36,361 nucleotides of DNA from a virus (Duplodnaviria > Heunggongvirae > Uroviricota > Caudoviricetes). Positions 1,127 through 33,741 of this stretch are shown in pieces. The stretch is from the IMG/VR virus record IMGVR_UViG_2579778635_000006; one strand, written 5' to 3'. The notes under the pieces are model-generated. The model was not told where the DNA came from. It saw only the letters and a list, made by a program, of their open reading frames with translations, and searched no databases. The stretch's first letter is position 1, and each line of letters begins with the position of its first letter. The position numbers and the translations under genes were made by a program.

Positions 1127-3115
1127 TTAAAAAACATTCTTATCCCCGTGGAAAAAACGTGCAACGTTCAATAGCCAGTCGGGGGTTTTTATTTCATTTG
1201 AATTTGCTAGTATTTCTAAATATTTTTCGCAAAATTCATTTTTTTTTCCTGGTAATTCGAAATAATCCTCAATAGCTTTTTTTTCTGTAATGTTAAGATT
1301 CAAAGCGCCTCCCGATACTGAAGACTCCATTAACTGTGGGGTTTCCATAAAGGACAAACTAGTTTCTCCTTTAGTGTAAAGCATTTTCAGAGTTTCTACG
1401 TAGAAATCAGCATTAAGAGACTGCTCAATTTCTGTAGGTGGATAAACTCGATCATCAGTAACTTTAACAAGGCTTATATTAGATAAGTCTTTATCGAGCA
1501 AGAGTCTTCTTATTTTTATACTTGGTATTGTATCTGTAGCATCATATGGACTATATTTGTGATCTGTATCTAATAATAATAATACTTTTCCTGAGATTGT
1601 TGCTTTGCGATCCTCTAACGCCATAACGAGTAAATTATATATTTTTTTTACTGTAGGGGAGCCACCGACGGATAAAACTATTAGTTTCTCAATGTTTTCA
1701 TAATCCAAGTGAGCGGAAATATATTTTCTATCAGTTTTTCCTTCGCACAATATCCAGTTATAATTATTTCCAGATGTTATTGAATAAACAATTGATTGTG
1801 CTAAGTCGTGATTGCTTTTCATTTCTAAAACGTCAAGGTAAGAGCCATTTGACTCTTTTGCTAGTTCCTTTAATTCATCCTTGTAGTTTTCCAGATCGAG
1901 TGCTTTGATGTATGTTTGAGAGGGGGAAATATATATGGCTGTACCTGAGCCTGTAACAGGTAAAAAACCATACCAATGAGTTGTACAAATAGTCTGTATG
2001 CCTAGGTCGCTAATTTTTTTTATTTTATCAAATTGATTAAAACATGATGTGGCATGTAAGGATAATTCAGGTTCATCAACAGCAAGAATTGTTGAGTGCT
2101 GAGATTTTTGTGGATTATGTTTTAAGAAATTGGTAGCAAGATCTAGCAATGCTTTTCTTTTTTCTCCTGAGCTTAAATTTTGCACAGGGGTATCTTTATT
2201 AACATCATCAATATGATGTAATATTTTATCACTAAAATATGATTCAATTATTTTAGATATCATATGACGTTGAGTGAAACTATTTTGTCGCTGAGATGGT
2301 TTTTTAAATTGATATCGCCCCTCAAGCTTTGTAGTTAATTGTCTAATAAAATCATTTAAGTGCGAATTTATTGCTGTAATATCCTTTTTCTTAATGATTT
2401 TACTGATTTTTTGTTGGAGATTTTCACCTAATAAAGACTGTAATAAATCGCTTTCAATCCTTGAGTATTCGGATGTGGTTATTTCTGCAGGTAGGTAAAT
2501 ATAATTATAGATATCCTTAATTGTTATTAATAGCTTAGGTAGTATATTGTTAAAATGATATTTTTTATTATTCGTCGAACTATTTTCATTTGCGAGATCA
2601 TCAATTTGCAATCGATAATCATCTATAGATTCGAAAATTGACATGTAGGGGCGAGGAATATCATTTGCAGTTTCTTTTATTATCCCAAGGGGAATTAATA
2701 AATATTCATCTGAAGAATATTTGTATTCTAGTTGCTTCCTGTGTGATATAAATTTCTCAGCTATAGGACGTTGCAATGTATTAAAAACTTCACTTTCTAT
2801 TTGCCAAGTGATATCGCTTACGATTTCTAATGCTTTGTATAGGGAATTATTTATCTTTAGCTTGTTTTTATTTATTAAATAAATTGGCACAATGAATGGT
2901 TCTCGAGTATCGAAACCTTGACTGCGCGCTTCATTGTTGATATCAAGTCTATTGATATCAGTTTTATTTAGTACAATATCTAATGCTTGTAATATTGAGC
3001 TTTTCCCGACACCATTTTCACCAATGAGCCAAGAGGATTTATTGTTTAAAGTGAGAGGGATATAATGTTGATTTTTGAAATTCTTGAAATTTCGTAAAAT
3101 AACACCAATAATCAT
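1127..3115 (-). CDS. OLD-family ATP-dependent nuclease: N-terminal ABC-type ATPase fused to C-terminal TOPRIM (class-1 OLD or fused AriA-AriB/PARIS-like)
   Basis: 662-aa ORF. Walker A is GENGVGKSS near the N-terminus and Walker B-like is ILAVDEPELSLH. The C-terminal region has the TOPRIM signatures CEGKTD and LLLDTDHK. The gene is visibly AT-rich against the phage backbone and lies between cI and int. Confidence 0.8.
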   Translation of the reverse strand: MIIGVILRNFKNFKNQHYIPLTLNNKSSWLIGENGVGKSSILQALDIVLNKTDINRLDINNEARSQGFDTREPFIVPIYLINKNKLKINNSLYKALEIVSDITWQIESEVFNTLQRPIAEKFISHRKQLEYKYSSDEYLLIPLGIIKETANDIPRPYMSIFESIDDYRLQIDDLANENSSTNNKKYHFNNILPKLLITIKDIYNYIYLPAEITTSEYSRIESDLLQSLLGENLQQKISKIIKKKDITAINSHLNDFIRQLTTKLEGRYQFKKPSQRQNSFTQRHMISKIIESYFSDKILHHIDDVNKDTPVQNLSSGEKRKALLDLATNFLKHNPQKSQHSTILAVDEPELSLHATSCFNQFDKIKKISDLGIQTICTTHWYGFLPVTGSGTAIYISPSQTYIKALDLENYKDELKELAKESNGSYLDVLEMKSNHDLAQSIVYSITSGNNYNWILCEGKTDRKYISAHLDYENIEKLIVLSVGGSPTVKKIYNLLVMALEDRKATISGKVLLLLDTDHKYSPYDATDTIPSIKIRRLLLDKDLSNISLVKVTDDRVYPPTEIEQSLNADFYVETLKMLYTKGETSLSFMETPQLMESSVSGGALNLNITEKKAIEDYFELPGKKNEFCEKYLEILANSNEIKTPDWLLNVARFFHGDKNVF

Positions 3116-3135: not shown

Positions 3136-3726
3136 TTATTTACAAGTCATAATTACTTTAGCGATGATATTAACATCACTGATATTGCACTCTATTTTTT
3201 TTGATTTTGACTCTAGCATTATGCGGTTATTAGGTAACCTCATTAATTCTCGAACAGAATATATACCGTCAATGGCAATCAACCATAACCCATCATCAAT
3301 CTCATCCACACCTCGTCTCACGACATAAGTTATATGCTCATGCTCAAGAGCTGAGATATCTTTTAGGTCATTTGGCAATAGTGATAAATCAAAAATTAAA
3401 TAGCCATTATCAATCAGTTTGCCATCGATAATTTTCTCTCTGGTCAGGCTTACAACATGCGATTTTGCATCCACATACATGGGGCCTTCAGCTGCGGATA
3501 GCCAACGAAGTGAAATACCTGTTTCTAACGCACATTGAATTATCCAATCAGCGGGGAATGTATCTCTCATATATCGATTAGCTAACGTGCTTTTAGAAAC
3601 ACCAAGATGTTCAGCCAAAGCCTGTCGTGTCGTAAAGCCATAAGCTTCGACTAATCGCTCAATCGCAGCCTTACCACCTTTATTGGGATTTATTTTGATC
3701 TCACTTGGGTACTTTGATGTTGACAT
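3136..3726 (-). CDS. cI: Immunity repressor, 186 CI family
   Basis: 196-aa ORF. N-terminal HTH region (AYGFTTRQALAEHLGVSKSTLANRY) and C-terminal domain resemble 186 CI (recalled from memory). It is divergent from apl/cII across the switch region. Confidence 0.9.
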   Translation of the reverse strand: MSTSKYPSEIKINPNKGGKAAIERLVEAYGFTTRQALAEHLGVSKSTLANRYMRDTFPADWIIQCALETGISLRWLSAAEGPMYVDAKSHVVSLTREKIIDGKLIDNGYLIFDLSLLPNDLKDISALEHEHITYVVRRGVDEIDDGLWLIAIDGIYSVRELMRLPNNRIMLESKSKKIECNISDVNIIAKVIMTCK

Positions 3727-5876: not shown

Positions 5877-6730
5877 GCACCATCCTGAAATGGGCGGGAA
5901 ATAAAACCGCCATTATGTCCGAACTGAAAAAACATCTTCCTGCTGGTCCGCGACTGGTTGAACCTTTCGCGGGTTCCTGTGCAGTGATGATGGAGACGGA
6001 TTACCCCAGCTATCTTGTTGCGGATATTAATCCTGATTTAATCAACCTCTATAAAAAGGTTGCTGCTGATTGTGAGGCGTTTATATCTCGTGCCAGAGCT
6101 TTATTTGAGGAAGCAAACAGAGAGGTGGCTTATTACAACATAAGGCAGGAGTTTAATTACTCCACTGAAATTACTGATTTCATGAAAGCGGTATATTTTC
6201 TGTATCTCAATCGTCATGGTTACCGTGGGTTATGTCGTTATAACAAGAGCGAGCATTTCAACATTCCATACGGTAATTATAAAAATCCGTATTTCCCTGA
6301 AAAAGAAATTCGCGCATTTGCAGAGAAAGCCCAGCGAGCAACGTTTATCTGCGCCAGCTTTGATGAAACGCTGGCGATGCTGCAGGTGGGGGATGTGGTG
6401 TATTGCGATCCGCCTTATGACGGTACGTTTTCCGGCTATCACACTGATGGTTTCACTGAAGATGACCAGTATCACCTGGCATCTGTTCTTGAATATCGAT
6501 CATCAGAAGGTCATCCAGTCATTGTTTCTAACAGTGACACATCCCTGATCCGTTCGCTGTATCGAAATTTCACTCACCACTACATCAAGGCAAAACGCAG
6601 CATCGGCGTGTCGGCTGGCGAGAGTAAATCTGCAACAGAAATCATTGCTGTTTCCGGGGCGCGCTGCTGGGTGGGATTTGATCCTTCGTGTGGCGTGGAT
6701 AGTTCTGCTGTGTACGAGGTGCGTGTATGA
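5873..6730 (+). CDS. dam: DNA adenine methyltransferase (Dam-like, GATC-type N6-adenine MTase)
   Basis: Product begins [11 protein letters not shown] and contains the catalytic DPPY motif (VYCDPPYDG). ATG at 5873 overlaps the upstream stop. Confidence 0.9.
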
Positions 6731-9141
6731 GTCATGACGATATGAGCAACTCTAGCGGCTTTAACGAGGCCGCTGTAGCATTTTCATGGAACGGCCCGAA
6801 AAAGGCCATTAACCCTTATCTGGACCCGGCGGAAGTTGCGCTGGAGTCTGCACTTTCAAACCTGATCACTCTGTACGCTGCCGATAATGAGCAGGAACAG
6901 CTGCGCCGCGATGCACTGAGTGAGCAGGTCTGGGAGCGTTATTTCTTTAATGAATCCCGTGATCCTGTCCAGCGTGAAATGGAGCAGGATAAGCTCATTA
7001 GTCGGGCAAAGCTGGCGCATGAACAGCAGCGTTTTTACCCGGACATGGTCATTCTGGCGGACGTCAGCGCCCAGCCTTCCCACATCAGCAAGCCGCTGAT
7101 GCAACGTATCGAATATTTCAGCAGCCTGGGCAGGCCAAAGGCTTATTCTCGCTATCTGCGTGAGACGATTAAGCCATGTCTGGAACGACTGGAGCATGTA
7201 CGCGACAGTCAGCTATCCACTTCTTTTCGCTTTATGGCAAGCCATGAAGGGCTGGACGGCCTGCTGATCCTGCCTGAAATGAGTCAGGATCAGGTGAAAC
7301 GCCTGTCTACCCTTGTCGCTGCGCATATGAGCATGTGTCTTGATGCCGCTTGTGGTGATTTGTACGCCACCGATGATGTTAAGCCAGAAGAAATCCGCAA
7401 GACATGGGAAAGGGTGGCAGCGGAAACCCTACGTTTGGATGTCATCCCGCCTGCGTTTGAGCAACTCCGTCGGAAAAGAAACCGCCGTAAACCAGTGCCC
7501 TATGAACTCATTCCGGGCTCGCTGGCGCGTATGCTGTGCGCCGACTGGTGGTATCGGAAATTGTGGAAGATGCGTTGCGAATGGCGGGAAGAGCAGTTGC
7601 GTGCTGTCTGCCTGGTCAGCAAAAAAGCATCTCCCTATGTCAGCTATGAAGCTGTGATGCATAAACGTGAGCAGCGCCGTAAGTCGCTGGAGTTTTTCCG
7701 TTCTCATGAACTGGTGAACGAAGACGGAGACGCGCTGGATATGGAAGATGTGGTAAACGCCAGCTGCAGCAACCCGGCGCATCGCCGCAATGAGATGATG
7801 GCCTGTGTTAAAGGTCTGGAGCTTATCGCGGAAATGCGCGGTGACTGCGCCGTTTTCTACACCATTACCTGTCCGTCATGTTTCCATTCCACGCTAAATA
7901 ACGGCAGACCCAACCCGACCTGGAAAAACGCGACGGTAAGACAAAGCAGCGATTATCTGGTCGGTATGTTTGCTGCATTTCGTAAGGCGATGCACAAAGC
8001 CGGGTTGCGCTGGTATGGCGTGCGGGTGGCTGAGCCGCATCACGACGGCACAGTTCACTGGCACCTGTTGTGTTTCATGCGCAAAAAAGACCGCCGCGCC
8101 ATTACTGCATTGTTGCGTAAGTTTGCTATCCGTGAAGACCGCGAGGAGCTGGGCAATAACACGGGGCCGCGCTTTAAGTCTGAGCTGATTAACCCGCGCA
8201 AAGGAACGCCGACAAGCTACATAGCGAAATACATCAGTAAGAACATTGACGGGCGTGGTCTGGCTGGCGAGATCAGCAAGGAAACGGGTAAATCTCTTCG
8301 TGATAACGCTGAATACGTGAATGCCTGGGCGTCTTTGCATCGTGTTCAGCAATTCCGCTTCTTTGGTATTCCGGGGCGTCAGGCTTACCGTGAACTGCGA
8401 TTGCTGGCTGGTCAGGCGGCAAGGCAGCAGGGTGACAAAAAAGCAGGTGTGCCGGTACTGGATAACCCGCGCCTTGATGCCATTCTGGCTGCTGCTGATG
8501 CTGGTTGTTTTGCCACCTATATCATGAAGCAGGGAGGTGTACTGGTTCCCCGTAAATATCACCTCATCAGAACTGCTTATGAAATTAACGAAGAGCCGAC
8601 CGCCTATGGCGATCACGGTATTCGTATTTATGGCATCTGGTCACCCATTGCAGAGGGCAAGATCTGCACTCATGCAGTGAAGTGGAAAATGGTTCGTAAG
8701 GCCGTTGACGTTCAGGAGGCGGCAGCCGACCAGGGCGCTTGCGCCCCTTGGACTCGTGGCAATAACTGTCCCCTTGCTGAAAATTTGAACCAACAAGGGA
8801 AAGACAAATCAGCTGATGGGGACTCCAGAACGGATATTACCCGTATGAATGACAAGGAGTTGCACGATTACCTGCACAGTATGAGCAAAAAAGAGCGCCG
8901 GGAACTGGCTGCAAGGTTACGCCAGGTGAAACCGAAACGGCGTAAAGACTACAAACAGCGAATTACAGACCATCAGCGACAGCAGCTCGTCTATGAACTG
9001 AAGTCCAGGGGATTTGATGGCAGCGAGAAAGAAGTCGATTTGCTCCTTCGCGGCGGCAGTATTCCGTCAGGAGCAGGCCTGCGTATCTTCTATCGGAACC
9101 AGCGTCTGAAGGAAGATGATAAGTGGCGGAACCTGTATTAA
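6727..9141 (+). CDS. A: Rolling-circle replication initiator, P2 gpA family
   Basis: 804-aa ORF with the HUH-type motif VHWHLLCF and a tyrosine-containing region (YIAKYISK). Position before the cos-proximal region is as in P2. Confidence 0.95.
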
Positions 9142-9233
9142 TTACGCGGGTTAACAATTCGTGCTCTTAATAATACCAGGCATATCAGGCCGATGAACGT
9201 AAAAAAACGTTTTACATCAGTAAGATTATTATA

Positions 9234-9253
9234 TACTGTAAATATAAACAGTG
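9234..9253 (+). promoter_or_regulatory. LexA (SOS) box TACTGT-N8-ACAGTG overlapping the promoter of the tum-like operon
   Basis: CTGT at 9236-9239, an 8-nt AT-rich spacer, ACAG at 9248-9251: this fits the CTGT-N8-ACAG consensus. It lies about 40 nt upstream of the 9294 start, as for the 186 tum promoter. Confidence 0.7.
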
Positions 9254-9293
9254 GTTATGTGTACAGTATTGTTTTGGTGTCATAGGAGGAAAG

Positions 9294-9482
9294 ATGCAGG
9301 ACTATTTTTTGGAGTCTTTGAAGCTCCAGCGCATTGATTTTTTTCTTAAGCTTGTAGCGGCTAGTGAGTGTAGTGATGAAGAGAAGGGGCTGGCTCTGCA
9401 GTGGGTTTCTGAATTGACTGATGAACTCATGGCAAAAATCAGAAGCCACGAATACAACCGCTCAATGGATGTCATCAGCTGA
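9294..9482 (+). CDS. Small SOS-controlled protein at the position of the 186 Tum antirepressor N-terminal region (hypothetical)
   Basis: ATG at 9294 with AGGAGGA upstream. It directly follows the LexA box. 62 aa. Confidence 0.6.
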   Translation: MQDYFLESLKLQRIDFFLKLVAASECSDEEKGLALQWVSELTDELMAKIRSHEYNRSMDVIS

Positions 9483-9492
9483 GGTGACTTTT

Positions 9493-9726
9493 ATGCGCAT
9501 TGAAATAATGATCGATAAAGAGCAGAAGATTAGCCAGTCTACCCTGGACGCCCTTGAATCCGAGCTTTACCGCAATCTGCGCCCCCTGTATCCCAAAACG
9601 GTAATTCGCATTCGCAAAGGTAGCTCTAACGGTGTGGAACTAACCGGACTGCAACTGGATGAAGAAAGAAAACAAGTGATGAAAATTATGCAGAAGGTGT
9701 GGGAGGACGACAGCTGGCTGCATTAA
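9493..9726 (+). CDS. DinI-family protein
   Basis: ATG at 9493 with GAGGTGA upstream. The product (MRIEIMIDKEQKISQSTLDALESELYRNL...VWEDDSWLH) matches the DinI pattern: MRIE start, central aromatic, C-terminal acidic W. Confidence 0.8.
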   Translation: MRIEIMIDKEQKISQSTLDALESELYRNLRPLYPKTVIRIRKGSSNGVELTGLQLDEERKQVMKIMQKVWEDDSWLH

Positions 9727-9734
9727 GAAATGTT

Positions 9735-9763
9735 GCCCCCAGGAGGATTCATTCTGATGGGGG
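9735..9763 (+). terminator. Possible hairpin terminator after the dinI-like gene
   Basis: gccccca ... tgggggc inverted repeat followed by a T-containing tract. The loop is long, so this is weak. Confidence 0.3.
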
Positions 9764-9918
9764 CTAGTTTGGGCAATGAGTGAAATAAGGCGTAAGGTGG
9801 GCGGTTATTTTGATCAGTGATCGTCCGCTTTGTGTCAGAAGCAGAAGTGGGAGTGTCTGAGACTCTCTAAAAGTTGATGATTCACTTACAAAACCATTTT
9901 CCTGATGGATGCTTACAC

Positions 9919-10254
9919 TTACGAATGATCATTCTGTTTAGTCTTCATGAGAAAATCCCGAATCTTTGCCAAGTTTGAATTTTCGGGGATTGAATCCATG
10001 TACGGATCACGCTCAAACACTAATTGCTCAGATTCAACGAAAGCCTGCCACTCTACTGGGTCTAGCTCAAATCCCATTGCTGTCATATCACTTTCATCTT
10101 CCCCCTCGATCCAGTGGACTAAATAAAACAATTCATCATCAGGAGAATCATCCTCACCATCAACAATATCAACATCGGTTACAGTGATACGTAGGGTGGG
10201 ATCGATTTTTGAGACATAAATTCCTAACTGTGGTATAGGGGGAATATTGTTCAT
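9919..10254 (-). CDS. Highly acidic small protein (111 aa), hypothetical; candidate DNA-mimic/anti-restriction or immunity-type protein
   Basis: ATG with AGGAG about 6 nt upstream on the minus strand. About 26 D/E against about 7 K/R by eye. Opposite orientation to the flanking early genes, in a cos-proximal accessory region. Confidence 0.6.
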   Translation of the reverse strand: MNNIPPIPQLGIYVSKIDPTLRITVTDVDIVDGEDDSPDDELFYLVHWIEGEDESDMTAMGFELDPVEWQAFVESEQLVFERDPYMDSIPENSNLAKIRDFLMKTKQNDHS

Positions 10255-10733: not shown

Positions 10734-12131
10734 ATGAAGATGTATGAAGTAATTGATATATCAGCGCAGGAAATTAAGGCGTTGTTAAACACTGCTGAAG
10801 ATCATTTCAATGATTTTAAAAGTAAGCAAATAGCGCCTAATAAATTACAAGAAACTTTTGTAGCATTTGCAAATGCTGATGGCGGTAATATTTATATTGG
10901 CATAGAGGATGCAGCTTCGGGGAGAGAGCGTATATCTGGTTTCAATGAGCCAGAGGAAGCGAATGCTATTATTTCGACCTTATTGGAAAATACTAATCCA
11001 GCTGTTGAGAATGTTGAGGTGGAATATTTAAGAACACCTTCCAATGGATTGATTTTACATGTGGATATACCAAAAAGCCCCAAAGTTCATTACACGGCCT
11101 CTGGCGATTGCTTTATAAGAGCTAACGCGCAAAAATTAAAAATAAAAGGTGAGCGAATTACTCAGCTTTCCTATTCTAAAGGCGCAGAACCTTATGAAAA
11201 AAAAGCAGTGGATATAGTTGAAGTAGAAGATATTCTTGAAAGTGAATATTATTCTGATTATTTACGTAGAATAGGAACGACTCAGTCACCGAGAGTTTTT
11301 TTAAAAAAACAACGACTGTTAACTAAGAAAGATGGTGAATTTGTCCCGAATGTAGGCTGTGTTTTACTATTTGATGAAGAGCCTCAAGGATGTTTAGATA
11401 CTCGATGTGCTGTAAAAGTATATCGGCTTAGAACAACTGAAGCAGAGTACAAACGTGAACAATTACAGGAAGATCCTGTAACGATTGAGGGGCCACTTGA
11501 AGTGGTTATTTTAAATACAATAGCAAAAGTAAAAGAATATGTTGATGGAGCATCATTCAAAGACGGCGAAAATCTAGTAAAACTTAGCTATCCTGCAGAA
11601 GCATTGAAGGAAATATTAGTTAATGCTGTTATTCATAGAGATTACAGCCAAAAGGATGATGTGCACGTAAAAGTTTATGACAACCGGATTGAAGTTCAAA
11701 GTCCAGGCAGATTGCCTGGATACATGACTATTAATAATTTATATGAAGAGCGGTTTTCTCGTAATCCAAATTTAGTGCGTTTGTTGCATAAACTTCCCAA
11801 TCCAGTGAACCATGATATTGGTGAGGGGCTTGATACTGCAAAAAATGAATTGCGTAAGGCCGGGTTGGTAGCCCCGGTATTTGAAGAAAGGGGCAATAAT
11901 TTTGTTGTAATAGTTAAGCATCAAACAATAGCCTCAATTGAGGATGTGATTATTAATTATTTTAAAGAAAATCCAACGGGACAGCTCACAAATAAGTTGG
12001 TTAGACAATTAAGTGGCGAAGATGACCTTCAAAAGGTTAAAAAGGCATTGCAAAAGTTAAGGGAGGAGGGCGTAATAAAACCATTAGATCCTAACGCGAA
12101 TCCTTTCAAATTTAAATATATTAAAGCTTAA
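10734..12131 (+). CDS. AlbA_2 (Schlafen-like) + HATPase_c_4 + C-terminal wHTH protein; candidate defence/exclusion cargo
   Basis: 465-aa ORF with AAGGA upstream. N-terminal AlbA_2-type signature (DFKSK...FVAFANADGGNIYIGIED), central HATPase_c_4-type signature (NAVIHRDY...DNRIEVQSPGRLPG...SRNP), then a helix-rich tail. Strongly AT-rich against the backbone. Followed by a bidirectional terminator. Confidence 0.8.
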   Translation: MKMYEVIDISAQEIKALLNTAEDHFNDFKSKQIAPNKLQETFVAFANADGGNIYIGIEDAASGRERISGFNEPEEANAIISTLLENTNPAVENVEVEYLRTPSNGLILHVDIPKSPKVHYTASGDCFIRANAQKLKIKGERITQLSYSKGAEPYEKKAVDIVEVEDILESEYYSDYLRRIGTTQSPRVFLKKQRLLTKKDGEFVPNVGCVLLFDEEPQGCLDTRCAVKVYRLRTTEAEYKREQLQEDPVTIEGPLEVVILNTIAKVKEYVDGASFKDGENLVKLSYPAEALKEILVNAVIHRDYSQKDDVHVKVYDNRIEVQSPGRLPGYMTINNLYEERFSRNPNLVRLLHKLPNPVNHDIGEGLDTAKNELRKAGLVAPVFEERGNNFVVIVKHQTIASIEDVIINYFKENPTGQLTNKLVRQLSGEDDLQKVKKALQKLREEGVIKPLDPNANPFKFKYIKA

Positions 12132-33529: not shown

Positions 33530-33741
33530 CGTTAAAAAACAGTGCTTCTAACATCATGATTTTAAAAGGCATAAATTTCAGGCAACAAAAAACCCATCAA
33601 CCTTGAACCGAAATGGCGGGGTTGATGGGCTCCACAAAATGGGGACATCAAAGAAAAGCAGTGGCACTAATTAAGACTGATGCCCTGCGGAAAAGTTCTG
33701 CGGTTGTGCAAAAAAATTTCATTTTCAGGGCAACTTCAGTT

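Follow-up and report, generated by a model that had tools for sequence, protein, structure and literature searches.

The module at positions 9234-9726 of the window, i.e. the whole stretch of 36,361 nucleotides that was analysed, most probably (a probability of about 0.9) represents the SOS operon that a Fels-2-like prophage normally carries as two genes. In this operon, LexA would hold back a small antirepressor and a DinI-like protein, and the 186-type CI repressor of the same prophage would be the target. The anatomy of the module, its homology to known tum genes and its conservation are observed directly and carry this reading.

The prophage in the window belongs to the P2 family and is of the Fels-2 type (Felsduovirus). 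On the minus strand are found the integrase (1-1056), a gene for an ATPase of 662 aa (1127-3115) and the 186-type CI immunity repressor (3136-3726), which exhibits the Pfam domains Phage_CI_repr (residues 20-84) and Phage_CI_C (residues 94-192) and matches the structure of 186 CI (PDB 2FJR) with an E-value of 7e-26. CI is followed, in this order, by cII (Pfam Phage_CP76), DUF5347, a Dam methylase ORF and the replication gene A (6727-9141; Pfam Phage_GPA, E 8e-126). The SOS module begins 93 nt past the end of gene A and is transcribed in the gene A direction, and this position after gene A is common to 186, PsP3, Fels-2, HS, BL21(DE3) and the distant members of the family. Downstream of the module, the first ORF after the DinI-like gene is a convergent one of 111 aa on the opposite strand (9919-10254), beyond which lies a variable gene. 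The Rfam search found no RNA family inside the module. Elsewhere in the window, it matched the host RybB at 33584-33662, and the right end of the window is therefore chromosomal.

Upstream of the first gene of the module, the plus strand presents a LexA (SOS) box, TACTGTAAATATAAACAGTG, at 9234-9253 (box 1), located 41 nt before the 62-aa ORF and sharing 17 of the 20 consensus bases. This is the sole site with three or fewer mismatches to the 20-mer consensus TACTGTATATATATACAGTA in the 36-kb window, and none of 100 shuffled windows contained such a site. The 16-mer CTGT-N8-ACAG alone is not significant, with 0.54 occurrences expected and at least one in 46 of the 100 shuffles. Considering that the bare core is frequent by chance, the significance of box 1 rests on the full 20-mer, on its position and on its conservation. 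The box 1 sequence is the same in E. coli HS and in Fels-2, and each of the 11 Tum-family loci examined has a full CTG-N10-CAG box 35-61 nt ahead of its start codon, kept despite unalignable flanks and down to 37% protein identity. It is scarcely credible that this LexA-like sequence would be a chance AT-rich palindrome or promoter element serving another regulator, e.g. CI or Apl. The AT-rich character of the region and the expected frequency of the core, 0.54 per window, would allow it, but no shuffle out of 100 came within three mismatches of the 20-mer, the box holds the same position in 11 of 11 loci, and a lexA(Ind-) background blocks the induction of the HS prophage (PMC12055606).

The initial annotation had located the LexA box at 9234-9253, where it is indeed found, but had overlooked another, degenerate one on the plus strand, CAGTGGTTATGTGTACAGTA (9249-9268; box 2), which shows 14 of 20 consensus matches and has GTG in place of CTG. 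The 16-mer cores of the two boxes (9236-9251 and 9251-9266) overlap by one base. Colicin-type operators are recognized by 16-mer cores overlapping by one base, the second box starting with GTG (PMC2994835); with both features found here, the stretch 9234-9268 is, as far as its letters tell, a colicin-type double overlapping SOS operator. Positions 9235-9276 match the DNA that precedes the pesticin gene of pB1172_4241 (95.2% over 42 nt), and the promoters of the pPCP1 pesticin gene, of a colicin E1-like gene and of a klebicin-like gene share 86-88% identity with the operator. A total of 774 plasmids match the double-operator stretch, and box 2 of Fels-2 is the same as box 2 of a ColE1-like plasmid. 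A single LexA box is present in 186, PsP3 and the more distant family members, and this clade appears to have gained a bacteriocin-type double operator; if true, induction would have a higher threshold and come later than in the single-box phages 186 and PsP3. Occupancy of 9234-9268 by LexA is predicted from the sequence, its conservation and its likeness to the bacteriocin operators.

A -35-like hexamer, TTTACA, of a putative SOS promoter equivalent to 186 p95 lies on the plus strand at 9211-9216, 17 nt upstream of TACTGT (9234-9239). This arrangement resembles the annotated 186 p95 (TTCACA-18 nt-TACTGT), whose -10 hexamer TACTGT is the beginning of its annotated LexA box. By analogy with p95, we infer a promoter at TTTACA-17-TACTGT, in which box 1 would cover the -10 hexamer and box 2 the start region. 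A promoter arranged as in the colicin genes, where the -10 hexamer precedes both boxes, was rejected as the sequence does not fit it, whereas the 186 p95 geometry fits. The consensus scan gave no sigma-70 promoter at its thresholds.

The first gene (9294-9482, plus strand, ATG start) encodes the predicted Tum (TumA-type) antirepressor of 62 aa. The ORF reported after the LexA box in the initial annotation is thus present, and it is preceded by a Shine-Dalgarno sequence, AGGAGG, at 9284-9289 of the plus strand, 4 nt ahead of the ATG. The protein is 100% identical to ECHS_RS04495 of E. coli HS, which is named tum in the supplementary methods of the Phollow paper (PMC12055606). In the HS prophage DuoHS, an in-frame tum deletion abolishes the mitomycin C-induced lysis and the viral foci, and lexA(Ind-) likewise abolishes both (PMC12055606). 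The requirement of the identical protein in HS supports the strategy of the 186 type, proposed for this module from the start, in which a LexA-repressed antirepressor is used rather than RecA-mediated cleavage of the repressor.

The 62-aa protein belongs to the family phrog_698 (E 5.9e-38), and no family was found for it in Pfam or NCBIfam. Just 67 relatives, nearly all of 50-100 aa, came out of an exhaustive search with HMMER over 1.84 billion representatives. In an alignment of 27 diverse members, W37 is invariant and D3, E7, R13, C26, E40, L41 and L45 are near-invariant. The AlphaFold2 model (pLDDT 86.9) presents helices at residues 2-23 and 28-61, and the protein is predicted to be a two-helix hairpin. 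A sequence search of the PDB with the family profile gave no match, and Foldseek of the model against the PDB and BFVD returned generic helical hairpins only, all with E-values above 0.1. RefSeq labels the gene 'hypothetical protein', PHROGs give it 'unknown function', and it is at times called 'levan regulatory protein'. The chief practical value of this work is one of annotation: the gene can safely be named a Tum-type antirepressor.

The relationship to 186 Tum is observed at the profile level. The 186 protein has 146 aa, its DinI-like C-terminal half corresponding to residues 71-145, in agreement with the initial annotation, which describes a single larger protein with a DinI-like C-terminal part. 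Pairwise BLASTP detected no similarity of the 62-aa protein to 186 Tum or PsP3 TumA, and BLASTP of PsP3 TumA against 186 Tum gave nothing either; these short helical Tum-type proteins are too diverged for BLASTP to link them. The profile methods, hhalign and PHROGs, overturned the view, drawn from the negative BLASTP, that the 62-aa protein is unrelated to 186 Tum. Using hhalign, the profile of the 62-aa family aligned with 186 Tum, residues 3-45 on residues 3-45, with a probability of 94.9% and an E-value of 4.7e-8. Additionally, 186 Tum matches phrog_1993 (1e-22), phrog_8554 (1.4e-11) and phrog_698 (2.4e-5) in register, and the 62-aa protein weakly matches phrog_1993, the TumA family, also in register (E 0.002). 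Against PsP3 TumA taken singly, the profile of the 62-aa family gives a weak match (E 0.0048, probability 7%). The second ORF of the module is 41% identical to residues 71-145 of 186 Tum and 78% identical to PsP3 TumB. Together, hhalign, the PHROG matches and the 41% identity uphold the assignment of the 62-aa ORF to the N-terminal part of Tum and of the 77-aa ORF to its DinI-like part.

This second ORF, the DinI-like (tumB-type) gene, encodes 77 aa at 9493-9726 of the plus strand. It matches Pfam DinI (PF06183) over all of the profile (positions 1-63 of 63) with 81.3 bits for a cut-off of 24.2, phrog_189 with an E-value of 1.5e-29, and the DinI structures 1GHH/7YWA of the PDB with an E-value of 2.7e-6. 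The equivalog of chromosomal DinI, NCBIfam NF007893, misses its cut-off (42.7 versus 111 bits), and by these profile scores the 77-aa protein is a phage DinI-like paralogue of the TumB type and not the host DinI. It is identical in HS, BL21(DE3) and Fels-2.

Between the tum stop codon (9480-9482) and the DinI-like ATG (9493) there are 10 nt and the two frames differ; the gap, the frames and the 77-aa length had all been correctly given at the outset. The Shine-Dalgarno sequence of the DinI-like gene, GAGGTGA (9481-9487, plus strand), overlaps the tum stop codon (TGAGGTGA), an overlap shared by HS, Fels-2, BL21 and the 52%-identical loci L010-L012, and the intercistronic gaps range from 3 to 11 nt across all split loci. 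This suggests that tum and the DinI-like gene may be co-translated or translationally coupled. A coupling based on RNA structure was dropped, the local hairpin sequestering the Shine-Dalgarno sequence (9470-9488, −9.4 kcal/mol) being no better than in shuffled sequences (z −1.09). Downstream of the DinI-like gene, two plus-strand hairpins (9735-9764 and 9796-9829), with TTTGTGT just after the second one, form a candidate transcript end. The RNA fold of 9727-9830 has an energy of −37.6 kcal/mol (z −2.9), and the terminator scan made no call on the hairpins at 9735-9829. The hairpins together with the convergent ORF at 9919-10254 suggest that the two-gene transcript may end after the DinI-like gene.

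Since the DinI-like gene is the only one of the two that the databases name, one record calling it 'SOS induction modulator', and the 186 record states that truncated DinI-like Tum products 'modulate SOS induction', it could be proposed that the DinI-like protein triggers induction, via RecA or CI, and that the 62-aa ORF is an accessory or leader peptide. This is very improbable. The in-frame deletion in HS removed ECHS_RS04495 only, with start and stop codons fused, and abolished induction, a polar or coupling effect of the deletion being possible. Additionally, the antirepressor of PSP3 is reported to be encoded by the upstream gene (PMC3121763), and distant members of the family with 37-50% identity stand after gene A and behind a LexA box in the absence of any DinI gene. 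The 62-aa protein is then retained as the antirepressor.

The initial annotation had left open whether the two ORFs are a natural two-gene version or a tum gene split by a frameshift, and the first is borne out by conservation in E. coli genomes, Fels-2 and PsP3 and by the lack of a fused homologue. At the DNA level, Fels-2 and many P2-family phages of Klebsiella, Salmonella and E. coli share 96-98% identity with the module. Of 5426 complete E. coli genomes, 1126 contain it, and in 1071 of these (about 20% of the 5426) a single place spans 80% or more of the query. Where the sampled rows reach this coverage, a 'hypothetical protein' and a 'DinI-like family protein' are annotated separately, with no pseudogene flag. 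The window, HS, BL21(DE3) and Fels-2 have one and the same junction sequence. Each of the two cistrons has its own Shine-Dalgarno sequence. The homologues of the 62-aa protein conserve its C-terminal tail at the protein level as far as the stop codon, and this tail shows no similarity to the linker of 186 Tum. Among 182 clusters of homologues, no fused tum-DinI gene was found, apart from a 52-aa fragment (P0139) resembling a deletion fusion.

Among the relatives of the N-terminal half of 186 Tum itself, 11 of 120 clusters run on into DinI; the remaining ones are stand-alone proteins of 62-94 aa, several of them named 'Tum protein' at NCBI. The GenBank record of PsP3 contains tumA ('UV induction of prophage') and tumB (DinI-like), and a passage of PMC3121763 describes the tum region as two genes in Fels-2 and PSP3. 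Therefore, as stand-alone forms dominate the clusters and the junction is conserved, the two-gene form is in these sequence comparisons the prevalent intact one, from which 186 departs by its fusion. The initial annotation had also envisaged that the two-ORF arrangement could be the universal intact form with no relation to Tum; the two-ORF arrangement is in fact the usual intact form, but its relation to Tum is supported.

A frameshift that recently broke an ancestral 186-like tum near 9470-9500, with impaired induction as a consequence, can practically be dismissed. It would account for 186 Tum being a single protein of 146 aa with both parts, for two ORFs in different frames just 10 nt apart and for a DinI-like frame that is open upstream to 9421. 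However, the same junction is found in HS, BL21 and Fels-2, 1071 E. coli genomes have the layout, with separate unflagged coding sequences in the sampled rows, and the HS prophage, with this very junction, is inducible and yields infectious phage (PMC12055606). The 62-aa protein's tail, conserved to its stop and unlike the 186 linker, the lack of a fused homologue, the separate tumA and tumB of PsP3 and the dominance of stand-alone forms even among the relatives of the 186 N-terminal half all argue likewise for a natural two-gene operon.

The CI repressor encoded at 3136-3726 would be the target of the antirepressor. Because this CI is just 46% identical to the CI of the HS prophage (approximately 73% in the N-terminal and 35% in the C-terminal domain), activity against it is extrapolated from HS. 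In eight phages with a Tum at least 97% identical, the N-terminal HTH domain of CI averages 73% identity, while the C-terminal oligomerisation domain averages 36% and is no closer than to 186 or PsP3. The identity of the CI N-terminal domain falls with the Tum type, to 54% for ESSI-2, whose Tum is 41-49% identical to the window-type Tum, 45% for PsP3 and 40% for 186. The covariation, which comes from 11 related, phylogenetically non-independent sequences in a setting where DNA-binding domains are often more conserved anyway, fits a Tum type that would track the N-terminal and not the C-terminal domain of CI. The antirepressor thus probably contacts the N-terminal DNA-binding domain, and the 186 record, in which Tum 'inhibits CI DNA binding', is consistent with such a contact.

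More tentatively, and with considerable doubt, a single near-invariant antirepressor (at least 97% identity in E. coli, Klebsiella and Salmonella) could serve many CI types through their conserved N-terminal domain, the C-terminal domains being freely swapped, and this clade would have acquired a bacteriocin-type double operator giving a later induction at a higher threshold. If true, heteroimmune Fels-2-like prophages in one cell would cross-induce, and defective copies, e.g. that of BL21(DE3), could induce an incoming relative.

In the proposed mechanism, LexA would sit on the double operator (9234-9268) of the undamaged lysogen, over the -10 hexamer and the start region. Upon DNA damage, active RecA would lead to the self-cleavage of LexA, and derepression would yield a short bicistronic mRNA encoding the 62-aa Tum/TumA-type antirepressor and the 77-aa DinI-like protein. 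The antirepressor would bind the 186-type CI directly and block its binding to the operator, CI not being cleaved, and with CI blocked the early lytic promoter would be derepressed, resulting in lytic growth. The DinI-like protein, which would not be the antirepressor, probably acts on RecA filaments and modulates the SOS signal, as its family membership suggests.

Earlier publications already cover the mechanism, the two-gene form and the genetic role. The present analysis adds, as incremental steps, the double operator of the colicin type, a formal link of homology, a count of split versus fused forms and the covariation with the CI domains. The module decides whether a very common type of prophage of E. 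coli, Klebsiella and Salmonella wakes after DNA damage, including damage by antibiotics, and roughly 20% of complete E. coli genomes, including BL21(DE3) and the commensal HS, carry it. The double operator and the CI covariation bear on induction thresholds and on the cross-talk of co-resident prophages, for which they are modest leads.

Of the known systems, the SOS operon of 186 (p95-tum-orf97) shares with the module its place after gene A, a LexA box beginning at the -10 hexamer TACTGT, a homologous stretch of about 45 N-terminal residues, a DinI-like part with 41% identity and a CI of the same type; by analogy, induction would also proceed through repressor sequestration and not cleavage. 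Unlike the two cistrons of the window, 186 has both parts fused in 146 aa, with an additional DinI-like product of 76 aa from an internal GTG. It has a single LexA box where the window has a double overlapping one, and orf97 lies downstream in 186, whereas no orf97 homologue is present in the window, where the convergent 111-aa ORF and the variable gene are found instead.

Fels-2 (STM2728 and a DinI-family gene) presents the same two-gene layout, with 97% identity of the module DNA and an identical DinI-like protein. PsP3 tumA/tumB has this layout as well, and TumB is 78% identical to the DinI-like ORF, but TumA belongs to phrog_1993, related only at the profile level to the phrog_698 of the window, and PsP3 differs also by its single LexA box and its intercistronic gap of 3 nt. 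DuoHS of HS has identical 62-aa and 77-aa proteins, the same operator architecture and the same chromosomal neighbourhood on the rybB/ybjL side, and differs in its CI (46% identical) and in the accessory genes, both those separating int from cI and those that follow the DinI-like gene.

The colicin and pesticin operators (ColE1, pPCP1 and klebicin plasmids) likewise have 16-mers sharing one base and a box 2 that begins with GTG. In the bacteriocin promoters, however, both boxes are downstream of TTGACA-17-TAxxTT, whereas box 1 appears to lie at the -10 hexamer in the window, and the genes that they control are unrelated to the tum module. The Gifsy operons of Salmonella (dinI-gfoA/gftA) also combine a LexA-repressed DinI homologue with a small antirepressor acting against a non-cleavable repressor (PMC3121763), but dinI comes first, i.e. 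in the reversed order, the phages are lambdoid and the repressor belongs to another family.

The tum gene (window 9294-9482, + strand) carries the labels 'hypothetical protein', 'levan regulatory (domain) protein' or 'unknown function' across phage and RefSeq records and PHROGs, which leaves an annotation gap for this gene, published genetics notwithstanding. In many distant members of the Tum family, the C-terminus is a glycine-rich tail with the pattern ...NPQxGGxxGGxxLQ. These glycine-tailed members comprise the loci L006 (535-744) and L008 and L009 (4001-4207), and the proteins P0147, P0153, P0156, P0173, P0178 and P0181. For the two members that were looked up, P0147 and P0173 (loci L006, L008 and L009), a downstream DinI gene is absent and a convergent ogr directly follows the glycine-tailed gene. 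A further homologue, P0139, is a single fragment of 52 aa in which Tum residue ~35 is joined directly to DinI-like residue ~11 (…LLAIQQKISQATLGALESEL). Its apparent origin is an uncommon fusion by in-frame deletion, or else an assembly artefact.

The CI repressor encoded at window 3136-3726 (- strand), the putative target of the antirepressor, was compared with the cI product of vB_EcoM-813R9. Residues 1-70 of the two proteins are almost identical, and in the C-terminal domain the identity falls to 34%. From this alignment, the CI of the window looks mosaic at the domain boundary, which suggests a recombination that would swap CI oligomerisation domains behind a common DNA-binding domain.

The BL21(DE3) prophage locus (chromosome 872806-880456) has its cII-to-A region deleted and retains tum and DinI-like genes identical to those of the window. 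Since both genes are kept, the antirepressor should, judging from the gene content, still be produced in this widely used laboratory strain upon SOS induction.

At the right end, the host sRNA gene rybB was found at window 33584-33662 (- strand; Rfam RF00110, 105 bits), and the window therefore reaches past the prophage on its right side and takes in chromosomal DNA. DuoHS, the prophage of E. coli HS, lies between rcdA and ybjL, and the two prophages probably occupy the same chromosomal neighbourhood.

Between int and cI, the window carries a gene for an ATPase of 662 aa (1127-3115, - strand), with Pfam matches to AAA_15 and AAA_21, and with PADLOC matches to AriA over residues 1-380 (E 2.3e-23) and to Old over residues 287-496 (E 1.5e-17). 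The gene resembles anti-phage genes of the OLD/PARIS-AriA-like kind, placed in an accessory slot of the prophage. In E. coli HS and BL21, in contrast, the int-cI slot holds a 63-aa gene only.

Downstream of the SOS operon, a convergent ORF (window 9919-10254, - strand) encodes an acidic protein of 111 aa that matches phrog_17127 (E 2e-70), a family of unassigned function in PHROGs, and gives no match in Pfam or PADLOC. BL21(DE3) has a gene for a 111-aa hypothetical protein (WP_001059831.1) at the same position and on the same strand. The gene at window 10734-12131 (+ strand) encodes a 465-aa protein with Schlafen AlbA_2 and HATPase_c_4 domains, which in PADLOC matches parts of pAgo- and Aga-associated models. 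The slot directly 3' of the SOS operon is a variable hotspot, probably one related to defence: in place of the 465-aa gene of the window, BL21(DE3) carries the retron St85 genes, the related locus L010 carries GAPS4-like genes, and Fels-2 and HS carry other genes again.
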